Shown here one piece after another: positions 12,247 to 41,690 of a stretch of DNA of 64,000 nucleotides (positions within the stretch are counted from its first letter, which is position 1; each line of letters starts with the position of its first letter). Source of the stretch: Eledone cirrhosa (taxonomy: Eukaryota); assembly GCA_964016885.1 (NCBI GenBank), contig OZ024743.1:33790001-33854000 (forward strand), given 5' to 3'. The position numbers were made by a program, and so were the translations under genes. Under the pieces are notes generated by a model. That model worked only from the letters and a program-made list of their open reading frames with translations. It had not been told where the DNA came from and made no database searches.

Positions 12247-12590
12247 GTAACAAATAAATAAATGAACATAAACACTCACAGACACCCGGATGTGGTGCAT
12301 GCGCAGACTGAGCACACAACACACACACAGAAACAAAATGGCGTAGGACAGAACAAAGGAGAGGTTCAGAAAGAAAGAAAGGAATCCCCAGTCACTGAAG
12401 AGGTCACAGAGTGTGTGACGAAAGAACTATGACTATATATAAACAACTATCTGGTTGTGGAACCAACCAACCAACCAGAAATTTATAAATTTGTAAATTT
12501 ATAAATTTATAAATATATATTAAATTGAAGTGAAAGCAACTGGTGCGTGTGTTTCTTATTGGCAATATGACCCTCCCAAAGTATAACAAT
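12247..12590 (+). mobile_element. Short hammerhead-bearing non-coding insert (retrozyme / PLE pLTR-like)
   Basis: Unique ~340 bp between microsatellites, containing an HHR motif. Confidence 0.7.
12390..12434 (+). ncRNA. Type I hammerhead ribozyme
   Basis: AGTCA-CTGAAGA-g GTCACA gagtg TGTGAC-GAAA-G AA C-TA-TGACT; stems I and II pair perfectly. Confidence 0.85.
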
Positions 12591-13398
12591 ATATGTATGT
12601 ATATATATATATATATGTGTATGTATATATATGTATGTATGTATATATATAAGTATGTATATATATATATATGTATGTATGTATGTATATATATATGTAT
12701 GTATATATATATATGTATGTATATATATATGTATGTATATATGTATGTATATATGTATGTATGTATATATGTATGTATGTATATATGTATGTATATATGT
12801 ATGTATGTATATATGTATGTATGTATATATATATGTATGTATATATATATGTATGTATATATATATGTATGTATATATGTATGTATATATATATGTATGT
12901 ATATATGTATGTATATATATATGTATGTATATATGTATGTATATATATATGTATGTATATATGTATGTATGTATGTATGTATGTATGTATGTATGTATAT
13001 ATGTATGTATGTGTATGTATGTATGTATATATGTATGTATGTATATGTATGTATGTATGTATATATATATATATGTATATATGTATGTATGTATATATAT
13101 ATATATGTATATATATATGTATGTATATATATATGTATATGTATATATATATATGTATGTATGTATGTATGTATGTATGTATATATATATATATATGTAT
13201 GTATATATGTATGTATGTATGTATGTATATGTATGTATGTATATATATATATATATATATGTATGTATATATGTATGTATGTATGTATGTATATGTATGT
13301 ATGTATGTATGTATATATATATATATATGTATGTATGTATGTATGTATATATGTATGTATGTATATATATATGTATGTGTATGTATGTATATATATAT

Positions 13399-14007
13399 GT
13401 CAGGTCACCAGTTGGTGCTACTGGTAACATGTATCCCAATACAACCTGTCTCATGGTCGGGTCGTTGGCGACTAAACTGGCAGCCCCACCATGGTTTCTT
13501 GGTGAGTCGGGTGACTTTGCACCTCTTGCAGGACTAAAAACAAAACCTGTCAAAGGGCAAAGATCTCTTAAGAGTCAATGGCCATCCAAAATCACCGGGA
13601 GAGATGACCCCTTAGCCTTTGTCAAGGCAGAATTCTAGGAGAAGGAAGACTCTGATATAACACCTGCAACTCTGATGGTATCCAATGATGTTGACTTGTT
13701 CTTCTTTTTGTTAACTATCACCTTGGTTAAGAGAGTGGGACTGGCTTTGTGCAGTGCCTTTGCTCACTATAAAAGCTTCACAGCACAGGCATTGCTATAT
13801 ATCTGGAGATCTCTCTGCACTTATCGTCACATGGTACCATGGGCCCAGCACTATGTGTCAATAATTGTCACAAGTGTAGTGTTTGTACCAGAGTTTTCAA
13901 GTCGCTGGCTGAACTAAAAAGTCACACTTGTTCAGCGCATCGGTAGGGGTTCTCCTACATGGATATAAAGTAGTGGCCGTACTCGAAAACGAGTTGGCAG
14001 CCACCAT
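13399..14007 (+). mobile_element. Non-autonomous RTE derivative, copy 4 (full length)
   Basis: Same 5' start (gtcaggtcacc) and 3' end as copy 2. Confidence 0.88.
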
Positions 14008-14211
14008 ATATATATATATGTATGTATATATATATGTATGTATATATGTATGTATATATGTATGTATATATATATGTATGTATATATGTATGTATATATA
14101 TATGTATGTATATATATATGTATATATATATATATATGTATATATATATATATATGTATGTATATATATATGTATATATATATATGTATATATATATATA
14201 TATGTATATAT

Positions 14212-37132: not shown

Positions 37133-38574
37133 CAATGTTGGACTGGAACCTAACACCACATCTAGCATCAAACACCAGAGACACACCCTATACTACATAC
37201 CCAACACTAGCTGATCCATTATAACACAAACAACGACATCCCTCTGGAACCCTTCGCAGGGAAAATACCCATTTATACCTCTACGGCAGGTGTGACAACA
37301 TCCACCCACCTGGACGGCACTACACCGCTCTAAGGGTAATTTGAGCATGATTGATCGGTTGGATGGTGTTGGGCAGAGGAAACACCTTCCTTAGACAGAT
37401 GTAAAATGATTTAATCGAGTAGCGCTGTTGACCAGTAGGACCAGGCTGCTGAACGCAGTGAGTGAATGCAGTGCAACTGCCGTGCGGGTTGTACGTATAT
37501 GGATGATCTGACGGTCAGAGAGGGGTCGCGAGGACTGCGGATTGACCTTTGGCCTGCCTGGGGATGATTATCTTTCGACATCCAATGTAGCAAGCGATGA
37601 CCCAGATCTTACCAGAGATCATTGGGTCCTGAAGCAATCCTGCAATCACCGCGCCTGGTCATATGAGCAGACTACAACCATAGAGATCATTAATTTAGAA
37701 TCCTCGCTCATCATCTATAATTTCCATTTGTAGCACCTTAAGATGGGTTAATCCACCCTAATAATAATATGATCACCTTCAGCATAATTTAGTTAAACTA
37801 CTCTATAGTTAGTACACTTTATGCTTTAAAAGTCTCTCTTGGAAGGTGCACCTCGCCATAGAATTTAGGGTCTATATTGAGACACATTTTAATGGCTAGA
37901 TATAGAAACCCCAGAGTTACCTCCCCGCATGCATTAACTCCCCTTAGCCACACACACACTTCCGGTATTCAATGGCGTCTCTCGAAACGTAACACCCTCC
38001 TGTATCGAACTAAAGAACACCAGACTACGATCTCTAACTGGATTGTCGTGGATTATGTGAAAGGCATATAATCGAAATATACACTCCCTTGACCATGAAA
38101 ATACCGAAGTACATGAATTACTTGACATCCCTGCGCTGTGCATCTCCAATACTTATAACACTTTTAATGCTTGCACTATCTTTAATGCTTATAATATTTC
38201 TCCACACACAGACTATATCAATCATATAAAGACTTTGCCACCAGATCTACCAACCTAACACTCTTATTTACCTACCTAAGTGCCTCTACCACACATATCT
38301 CTCTGCCACACTATATAAACAAGACGCACATGCGTGCCACACATATAACATTTGCACTATATAACCACTTATCTTCATGTTGTACTTTAACCTATATCTT
38401 TGATTTTTGATTGTACCTATTAATATAAATGTAATCTCGAAGTGTGTACTGCCACTCTAAATTCTGTAATGAATGTTGACCCACAATGTTTGAATATGTA
38501 TCAATGTTTGAATATGTATTGGTATGTCTCTCGGCTGAAAAGGAGGTCATATAACTGTCCATGCATTAATAAAT

Positions 38575-38621
38575 TGCTCCGAAGAATCCAAACCTCGGTT
38601 TGGAGGAAACAGCTGTAAGCA
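38575..38621 (+). ncRNA. Minimal hammerhead ribozyme of the PLE (U4C core variant)
   Basis: TGCT-CCGAAGA-a TCCAAACC tc GGTTTGGA g-GAAA-CAGCTG-TA-AGCA. Confidence 0.78.
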
Positions 38622-40959
38622 CAATAATGTTTTGAACAGTTCTTTGATTCTTATATTTCATATAACTGCTCTGTAAATCATCTGATGTTTTTACATTGAG
38701 CTACTTAACTTACTGGTAATAAGGTAGTAATACATTACTGCCTACCACTATTTAGGGTGTGTGTAAAATACTTACAACTGCTTAAGGTTTTGTGTTTACA
38801 TAACCATAAATAGTATAACTAATACTATATATATATATATGTATATGTATATATATATATATATATATATATATATATATATATATATATATGTATATAT
38901 ATATATATGTATATATATATATATGTATATATATATATATATATATATGTAAATATATATATATGTAAATATATATATATGTATATATATATATATGTAT
39001 ATATATATATATGTATATATATGTATAAGTATATATATATATATATATATATATGTATATATATATATATATATATATATGTATATATATATATATATAT
39101 ATATATATATATATATATATGTATATATGTATGTATATATATGTATATATATATATATGTATATATATATATATGTATATATATATATATATATGTATAT
39201 ATATGTATATATATATATGTATATATATATATATATGTATATATATGTATATATATGTATATATATATATATATGTATATATGTATATATATGTATATAT
39301 ATATATATATGTATATATATGTATATATGTATATATGTATATATATGTATATATATGTATATATGTATATATATATATATATGTATGTATATATATGTAT
39401 ATATATATATATATATGTATATATATATATATATATATATATGCATATATATGTATATATATATATATATGTATATATATATATGTATATATATATATAT
39501 ATATGTATATATATGTATATATATATATATATGTATATATGTATATATACATATGTATATATGTATATATGTATATATATATATGCATATATATGTATGT
39601 ATATATATATATGCATATATATGTATATATATATATATATGTATGTATATATATATATGCATATATATGTATATATATATATATATATTTGTATATATAT
39701 ATATGTATATATATATATATATATATGTATATATACATATATATATGTATATATATATATATATATGTATATATATATATATATATATATATATATATAT
39801 GTATATATATATATATATATATATATATATATATGTATATATATATATATATATATATATATATATATATATATATATGTATTATATATATATATGTATA
39901 TATATGTATATATATATATATGTATATATATATATATATATATATATATATATATATATGTATATATATATATATATATATATATATATGTATATATATA
40001 TATATGTATATATATGTATATATATATATGTATATATATATATATGTATATATATATATATATATATGTATATGTATATATATATATATATGTATATATA
40101 TATATATATATATATATGTATATATATATGTATATATATATATGTATATATATGTATATATATATATATATATATGTATATATATATATGTATATATATA
40201 TGTATATATATATATGTATATATATGTATATATATATATATATATATATATATGTATATATATATATGTATATATATATATATATGTATATATATATGTA
40301 TATATATATGTATGTATGTATATATATATATATGTATGTATATATATATATGTATATATATATATATATGTATGTATATATATATATATGTATGTATATA
40401 TATATATGTATGTGTATATATATATATGTATGTGTATATATATATATGTATGTATATATATATATATGTATGTATATATATATATATATGTATGTATATA
40501 TATATATATATGTATGTATATATATATATATATGTATGTATGTATATATATATATATGTATATATATATATATATGTATGTATATATATATATATATATG
40601 TATGTATGTATATATATATATGTATGTATGTATATATATATGTATGTATATATATATGTATGTATGCATATATATATATATGTATGTATGTATATATATA
40701 TGTATGTATGTATATATATATATATGTATGTATATATATATATATGTATGTATATATATATATATATATGTATGTATATATATATATATGTATGTATATA
40801 TATATATATGTATGTATGTATATATATATGTATGTATGTATATATATATGTATGTATGTATATATATATATGTATATATATATATATGTATATATATATG
40901 TATGTATGTATGTATATATATATATATATGTATATATATGTATATATGTATATATATAT

Positions 40960-41690
40960 GAAAAAGAACACAAGAGCGTCTACAACATCAAAAGATTTTT
41001 ATTGGCTAACAATGTTTCTTCCTTACGTGTAACCGTAGGATTCATCAGAGCTATAAAAGGGGTTTGATTGGTGTTATGGACTCTACCAACCAAACACCCA
41101 AGAACAAAGAGTAAAGAGAGTAAAGAGCAAAAGTAGGGGACGATAAGTCTAATTTTGGTGCGGGAGGGTGGGGTGTTGGTCCTTGTTTACTAGCTGCGGT
41201 CATCGGGGGTCGGGTGGTTAGCTGAACCACAGATGGGGTGGCGTGGATAGTATGGTGCAGAGGCTACACAAACACAAAGGGCGTAGAATACATATATACA
41301 TATAGCGGAGGAGAAGGTACATGAGGTAATTAGAAGTGGAAAAAGAGTAATAATAATAATCTATAATTAATAGTGTATAATAAGGCATGGGGAAGATTAC
41401 ACTATAATAAGGTATAAAGGTAAGAATAAGGTAAAATATAAAGGAGGATAAAAGTGGAAATAATAATAAAGATAAAAAAATATATAGAGAATATATAAGG
41501 AAATATAAGCGAATATTTGGAGGGGAAAACACAATGTAAAAAAAAAAACGATTTTTTTCAAACAATAATAAAAAATAATAAAAATATAATAATTATGGGG
41601 GGAGAAAACAGGATAGAGAAATATGATCAAGTGTGATTCGTTGAGAGAATATAAGATGATAACAGTTGTGTCCGGTTTATACATCATCAT
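40960..41690 (-). mobile_element. Hammerhead-bearing non-coding insert (PLE 3' end / retrozyme-like)
   Basis: T-rich on the minus strand, HHR about 45 nt from the microsatellite junction; right boundary approximate. Confidence 0.65.
41005..41051 (-). ncRNA. Minimal type I hammerhead ribozyme
   Basis: Minus strand GCT-CTGATGA-a TCCTACG gttaca CGTaAGGA a-GAAA-CATTG-TT-AGC; stem I extends by ttttat/ataaaa. Confidence 0.8.

Follow-up and report, generated by a model that had tools for sequence, protein, structure and literature searches.

The DNA analysed here, which we call the window, is a 64,000-base stretch of the 3.0-Gb genome of Eledone cirrhosa (GenBank assembly GCA_964016885.1, contig OZ024743.1, positions 33,790,001 to 33,854,000 of the forward strand). 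Runs of TA, TG and CA mask 21,622 of its 64,000 bases, or one third, and are interrupted by islands of repeats. Within the microsatellite field that hosts these insertions lie eight predicted hammerhead ribozymes of six families, A to F (Table 1). We consider it probable (about 0.82) that the field is a TA landing zone holding the ends of four Penelope-like element (PLE) families (A, B, E and F) together with two retrozymes (C and D) that were likely inserted by PLE enzymes, with a predicted minimal hammerhead in each. The structure of the families, their copy numbers, two fixed 3' ends at TA/TAT microhomology, TA flanks and inverted arms are all directly visible in the genomic copies.

Table 1. 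Features of the window. Sites 1 and 2 are the two 3' end sites of a family; L numbers are genomic loci used for comparison; pLTR, pseudo-long terminal repeat; UTR, untranslated region; RT, a reverse transcriptase; ORF, an open reading frame; LTR, long terminal repeat.
Feature	Position	Strand	Details
(TA)n/(TATG)n microsatellite field hosting insertions	11541-48541	.	Masking of TA/TG/CA runs
Family A, 3' end (pLTR) of putative Neptune/Nematis-type PLE, ends at start site 1	12247-12589	+	Hammerhead 12390-12434, predicted cut after 12429
Family B, inverted arm with 138-nt tail	18304-18809	-	Hammerhead 18498-18651; 99.6% to the pLTR and tail of L121
Family B, 3' UTR/pLTR of putative Hydra-type PLE, unit about 6.67 kb	18800-19673	+	Hammerhead 19470-19613, predicted cut after 19603
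Family C, putative retrozyme, one unit and partial unit ending at site 2, internal TA tract	23063-23638	-	Hammerhead 23362-23404, predicted cut after 23368
Family C, inverted arm, truncated at D junction (CGAA microhomology)	23681-23812	+	Self-comparison and sequence
Family D, putative retrozyme, inverted arm	23813-24343	-	Hammerhead 24204-24291, U3-A8 core, predicted cut after 24209
Family D, putative retrozyme, partial and full 591-bp unit ending at site 2	24340-25128	+	Hammerhead 24806-24893
Family E, 5'-truncated putative Hydra-type PLE, linker and GIY-YIG only	36351-38825	+	ORF ends 37132; hammerhead 38575-38621, predicted cut after 38617
Family F, 3' UTR/pLTR of putative Hydra-type PLE, unit about 5.0 kb	40961-41693	-	Hammerhead 41005-41051, predicted cut after 41008; 96% to L125
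Family F copy, upstream continuation past nested insert	42766-42973	-	97% to L125, contiguous there
Insert nested in family F copy	41694-42765		202-bp tandem repeat x3, CATCAT-like ends
C/D head-to-head join	23809-23838		CGAA microhomology, 14-bp duplication
Non-LTR retrotransposon RT fragments	4335-6050	+	
	8481-11540	-	
	26667-28156	+	
	30170-33983	-	
	44154-45818	+	
605-bp non-coding repeat, five copies	6760-6930, 7613-8217, 11733-12183, 13400-14006, 14213-14587		All end in TA/TATG runs
330-bp repeat, two copies	28507-28838, 35320-35663		Inside TA field

A prediction made from the letters alone (below, the original prediction) had placed eight minimal type I hammerheads in this stretch, and direct reading of the sequence bears out every one of them. 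Their cores read CUGAAGA (A, B), CUGAUGA (C, F), UUGAUAA (D) and CCGAAGA (E). In B, C, D and E, stem III forms a perfect palindrome, which F matches save for a central U, while in A it consists of 2 bp with an AA loop. The plus-strand copy of B has a long stem II, and the plus-strand copy of D carries an A.G mismatch in stem I adjoining the core, from which we predict that this motif is likely impaired. A check with a relaxed descriptor, which the original prediction had proposed, succeeded in part: five of the eight motifs were recovered, with zero other sites in 42,079 non-microsatellite bases, and both B copies and the plus-strand D copy were missed. The same descriptor gave a mean of 0.125 matches (maximum 2) on 200 dinucleotide shuffles, a contrast inflated by its having been tuned after the motifs had been seen; a strict descriptor recovered two of the eight.

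In families A, B, E and F, the window copies are what 5' truncation has left of autonomous PLEs: elsewhere in the genome, full ORFs flanked by the same pLTRs are found. For family A, most of the other 19 loci shown run upstream into the end of a GIY-YIG ORF, and one locus (L151) has a 756-aa open frame followed by the A pLTR. The encoded protein has a CX2-5CxxC linker (CIDKKCITC at 630), two cysteines between VVY and YIG, a C-terminal endonuclease and a Pfam RVT_1 match (E 2.3e-4); the linker and cysteine motifs suggest a PLE of the Neptune or Nematis type, two types that they do not tell apart. Full copies of B (L121, L124) hold an 830-aa open frame between two pLTRs 6,668 and 6,675 bp apart. 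In one of them (L121:4314-8253), about 3.9 kb of non-coding sequence runs from the ORF end to the element end, much longer than in described Hydra elements. The full copy of E (L134, to which the window copy is 99.3% identical) has an 832-aa open frame and two pLTRs 4,199 bp apart, and all 40 of the 40 best matches to E are 100% identical over 426 bp, so the family is young. Of the at least 120 matches listed for the E protein, those from named animals came only from two molluscs (a bivalve and an octopod), with 33-39% identity. Family F is represented by a frame with RT and GIY-YIG and two in-frame stops, lying between pLTRs 5,007 bp apart (L125). A motif scan of the B and E proteins found RWR, DKT, a CxCX5C linker, and CxxC and CxH around E and N, with no CCHH; RWR, DKT, CxCX5C, CxxC and CxH were read for F from the tblastn alignment line. 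Pfam matches on the PLE ORFs were weak (GIY-YIG E 0.028), and it is the motif set that assigns B, E and F, provisionally, to the Hydra clade. Searching the genome with RF00163 yielded 74 scored matches; the 18 that exceed the cut-off form a further family, G (L157-L174). Four of the 18 match F by BLAST, and the family has two 3' ends against TA.

These full copies change the picture that the original prediction had drawn. Its six unrelated sequence types are indeed unrelated in their non-coding parts, but at the protein level B, E and F share 43-60% identity. Five of the types do lie in non-coding inserts as far as the window copies go, yet A, B and F are ends of coding PLEs. One motif does sit in the 3' region of a GIY-YIG PLE, namely that of E, but this copy is 5'-truncated, starting past the RT domain. 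The proposed role of the window's E copy as a helper therefore fails: with its RT missing, it helps nothing, and no sequence links C or D to E or to the other PLEs compared. What survives of the proposed non-autonomous, multi-family system is C and D, with their PLE-type ends; A, B and F turn out to be no more than the 3' portions of full-length PLEs, an outcome that the original prediction had itself listed as refuting. Nor does the F copy end at 41690, the limit drawn for the cluster; it runs to 42973 around a nested insert, which is unrelated to it.

Judged from their sequences, only C and D among the six families are non-coding tandem retrozymes. The C unit is about 460 bp long and recurs in tandem arrays spaced 460-510 bp, the difference being an internal TA tract, and D forms tandem arrays of 591-bp units. 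The longest ATG-started ORF is 56 aa in C and 75 aa in D, GC content is 0.37 and 0.42, and neither has an LTR architecture. The expectation that the inserts would prove multi-copy was confirmed: exact matches to the hammerhead words number 21,007 for A, 28,868 for C and 8,017 for D genome-wide, with 0 for the reversed C and D controls. (Candidate counts from DNA searches were not used as copy numbers; D gave 64 candidates against 8,017 motif matches.) A PLE ORF joined upstream in sense was absent from all of the first 15 D and first 18 C loci in order along chromosome C1, as well as from 10 D and 6 C regions of 10 kb, and PLE fragments near C or D units lie downstream, antisense or past a TA run. 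BLAST of the C and D units against the pLTRs of A, B, E, F and G, across 174 loci, gave no match at E 0.01. A search for partners through the C2 and D2 relatives, and upstream of D copies starting at the hammerhead, met only non-coding tandem or inverted units.

Both lineages have such relatives. The sister family C2 (L126:230-560 on the minus strand, L175-L194) is a 465-bp tandem non-coding unit that keeps the core and pairing of the C hammerhead despite an overall identity of 59%. Its hammerhead, in which stem II has a canonical G-C at its base and the cut site is GUC, is the best candidate for a cleavage assay. D2 likewise consists of non-coding tandem units and is 72% identical to D, with stem I, core and stem III unchanged. 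C may have relatives beyond this species, as two other organisms' sequencing runs (X5, X6) hold 26% of the C words; seven contigs of X6 and none of X5 matched C. In the window, C and D meet head to head with no TA between them, and both arms are cut off mid-unit. This junction would fit a later deletion, repaired by microhomology joining, better than a template switch, a candidate that we rejected because both arms would need to start at the junction.

The six families have in common where their copies end. We collected 187 distinct 3' ends, defined as those not continuing into more element, from copies of at least 88% identity, among them many best matches. All but three (184/187) fall at one or the other of their family's two sites, and TA runs border 177 of the 187 (A 34/35, B 25/25, C 19/24, D 48/49, E 30/30, F 21/24), in agreement with the TA-microsatellite targeting that had been proposed. 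The tail between the two sites measures 60, 138, 63, 165, 165 and 97 nt in A to F, and beyond each end site the element's next letters are a T/A-rich match of 2-4 nt (TA/TAT) to the microsatellite. Copies also have 5' inversions, giving two inverted arms. In an unselected sample, nine of ten inverted D loci have one arm ending at each site (two of these loci look like one duplicated locus), and array-specific variants are common to both inverted arms in the window D copy and in other arrays. Because these ends match the two-site tail reported for a PLE of the green anole (Frangieh et al. 2024, PMC11167929), C and D carry the signature of PLE integration although they are non-coding. The PLE tail footprint on C and D is thus direct genomic support for PLE-driven insertion. 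The distance from predicted cut to site 1 is 75 nt in D, 70 in B, 49 in F, 43 in E, 160 in A and 241 in C; judged by this geometry only, D resembles the Hydra families, a weak hint that it would use a Hydra-type enzyme.

From the published biochemistry, we propose that an RT-GIY-YIG protein of a PLE would nick (TA)n on both strands and start reverse transcription at two internal RNA sites, usually one per strand, to give two arms and a tail. The C and D hammerheads would cleave tandem transcripts into single units, probably acting as dimers formed through the palindromic stem III, and circles or multimers of the unit could then be copied into arrays. Both retrozyme lineages have kept core and pairing across 28-41% divergence, which argues for selection on the motif. 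Covariation among genomic copies, which the original prediction had named as a test, is seen for C. In a gap-free alignment of 13 distinct intact-core motifs of the C lineage (from 24 variants listed, broken-core rows left out), 91% of cells pair and 5 of the 13 pairs are changed on both sides; none of 500 shuffles scored as high, and controls with slid partners reached at most 2. In public contigs, the four variant positions listed within the C hammerhead map to N7, loop II and one stem I pair.

A number of observations weigh on the other side. The rows of the C alignment are related, which can make the shuffle test look too good, and of the five double changes four come from C2 alone; in some arrays C3 is changed in several units. 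At the base of stem II the conserved G-C is missing from B (C.A), C (U.U), E (A.G) and F (A.A), and E has C at position 4, so hammerhead activity may be low. Folded as monomers, five motifs do not exceed their shuffles in stability (z -0.7 to -1.6), and the minimum-energy structures of B, C, E and F contain no hammerhead fold; the plus-strand B motif gave a fold z of -5.0. Rfam scans of the C/D, F, A and E stretches returned no hammerhead family (RF00163, clan CL00010) at gathering score, the sole hammerhead match being C to HH9 at 19.3 bits (E 0.14), and a whole-window scan covering B had no hammerhead among the best 150 of 885 matches, all of them microsatellite, hairpin or miRNA noise. The Rfam check that had been proposed thus gave a split result, with the window motifs of A, C, D, E and F below gathering score and the F relatives in family G passing RF00163. 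PLE minimal hammerheads are reported to cleave weakly (PMC4209133), eight of nine Xenopus retrozyme dimers failed to cleave (bioRxiv 10.64898/2026.07.22.740005), and the anole PLE still inserts in vitro when its hammerhead is mutated (PMC11167929). Among the sampled loci, no autonomous element with C or D sequence was found.

How C and D reach their TA targets can be read in several ways. We entertain, tentatively, the idea that they are long-lived, abundant circular-RNA parasites that have no surviving coding parent and hijack PLE enzymes through RNA structure alone. Equally tentative is the form that this idea takes here, in which one RNA would be primed twice at fixed sites from opposite TA strands and rolling-circle copying would yield the arrays. 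It is possible, though we would not expect it with any confidence, that PLE enzymes instead move C and D from linear multimeric transcripts, with no circle needed and the hammerheads acting as passengers or in some other step. The insertion of the anole mutants is normal in vitro and no RNA ends were found at the cut site (PMC11167929), as linear transcripts would have it, and the units with a changed C3 and the differing TA-tract lengths among units of one C array point the same way. Such passengers would not be expected to keep core and pairing across 28-41% divergence in both lineages, however, and known retrozymes accumulate as circles (PMC7229834). The variants common to both arms fit circle templates and linear multimers alike.

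We regard it as unlikely that C and D are the pLTRs of rare, unsampled autonomous PLEs, amplified as solo tandem pLTRs. Xenopus retrozymes do match PLE pLTRs in the transposable-element hits of 24 of 57 families (bioRxiv 10.64898/2026.07.22.740005), and only tens of loci were sampled from the 8,017 and 28,868 matches, mostly with 1.5-kb flanks; yet both lineages are closed tandem units even in old subfamilies (C2 at 465 bp, and D2), and no sampled C or D copy enters an ORF, as the best A matches did at once. Quite improbable, to our mind, is growth of the arrays as ordinary satellites by unequal crossover after insertion of a single unit. This route is proposed in the same preprint and would also explain variants common within an array, but the arrays are short (up to 10 pieces), dispersed and set in two inverted arms, and they end at the same two sites as monomers. 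The original prediction's own picture of five non-autonomous families served by the local GIY-YIG element now has very little probability: all five inserts are non-coding and TA-flanked in the window, and D and E both have a 165-nt tail, but A, B and F have ORFs of their own, which already refutes it for these three, and the lack of an RT in the window E copy and of any similarity of C and D to E tells against it for the rest.

The clustering itself is ordinary for this genome because copy numbers are high and the families share one kind of target. Exact matches for A, C and D add up to 57,892 (21,007 + 28,868 + 8,017), or 1.2 per 64 kb, and the window has three. Of 36 regions of roughly 10 kb, 11 hold two or more hammerhead families together, as do 6 of the 15 unselected 3-kb D loci. 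The TA field also holds retroelements without hammerheads, namely fragments of LINEs (long interspersed nuclear elements) along with repeats resembling short interspersed ones (SINEs). Several non-LTR RT fragments lie in the window, putatively CR1/L2-like, R2/NeSL-like and RTE-like. Several copies of the 605-bp repeat are 5'-truncated or internally deleted, and its 5' end is structured; an Rfam scan of this repeat gave no ribozyme match. The 330-bp repeat has a segment in common with the 3' end of the LINE fragment at 26667-28156, and its head may be tRNA-derived.

Hammerheads in PLE pLTRs were described in 2014 (Cervera and de la Pena, PMC4209133), where cleavage as dimers and circles as templates were also proposed. 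Metazoan retrozymes followed in 2020, shown as circles and with PLEs as likely mobilisers (Cervera and de la Pena, PMC7229834), and they have since been treated as non-autonomous PLE derivatives (Li, Clavereau and Pollet 2026, bioRxiv 10.64898/2026.07.22.740005) in a study whose available portion includes no mollusc. A paper on a squid genome records 235 hammerhead loci (PMC6962438). Hammerheads in PLEs, TA targeting and the link between retrozymes and PLEs have all been published before, and the window holds no new kind of element. In the literature covered, which did not extend to subscription journals, Repbase or supplements, we found no description of families A to F or of tails on retrozymes, and the word 'tail' is absent from the 2026 preprint; the suggestion that the system might be undescribed therefore holds for these families and not for the concept. 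The case for the enzyme that moves animal retrozymes has so far been built on co-occurrence and pLTR similarity. What we add is a mechanistic PLE footprint on two retrozymes present in very many copies: the tail between two sites, the inverted arms and the targeting of TA. Because the genome holds very young, intact Hydra-type PLEs, the question of the mobilising enzyme can be tested in vitro, and if C and D were indeed circular-RNA parasites, they would form with the young, intact Hydra family E the first reconstitutable enzyme-retrozyme pair. With at least 57,892 exact motif matches for A, C and D, and with the window copies scanned below Rfam cut-offs, much is missed by standard annotation.

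Among known systems, the metazoan non-LTR retrozymes (PMC7229834; bioRxiv 10.64898/2026.07.22.740005) are the closest to C and D, being likewise non-coding and tandem with one type I hammerhead per unit, similar in GC content (37-42% in C and D), without LTRs, dispersed as monomers to multimers and found alongside PLEs. Units of C and D measure 460-590 bp, compared with 150-450 in the first study and 51-972 in the second. C and D differ in their PLE-type minimal motifs (including U3-A8), strict TA targeting, two-site tail and inverted arms, and in that no pLTR homologue was found among A, B, E, F and G (174 loci). Like the PLE minimal hammerheads (PMC4209133), the window motifs have a short stem I and a small palindromic stem III, an extra base after A9 (A), U3-A8 covariation (D) and opposite-strand pairs a few hundred bases apart; unlike them, four window families lack G10.1-C11.1, B and D have a very long stem II, and E has C4. 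Family A agrees with Neptune and Nematis PLEs in its CX2-5CxxC linker and paired GIY-YIG cysteines. Hydra-clade PLEs, as described by Craig et al. (2021, PMC8557442), have RWK, DKT, a CxCX5C linker, CxxC and CxH, bear hammerheads and use (TA)n as insertion sites, and B, E and F are like them in motifs, pLTR hammerhead, (TA)n insertion and inverted arms with one tail. They depart from them in RWR for RWK, in units of 4.2-6.7 kb with long 3' UTRs as against 'generally <3 kb', and in tails of 97-165 nt as against 30-40 bp. In vitro, RT of the green anole PLE, Poseidon, starts at two internal sites bounding a tail, and both target strands are extended (PMC11167929). Judged by their genomic ends, the families described here share with it the two internal starts bounding a tail, the AT-rich targets and the use of both strands, but the Poseidon start site is not homologous to the target, whereas theirs would lie at a TA/TAT match of 2-4 nt to the microsatellite.

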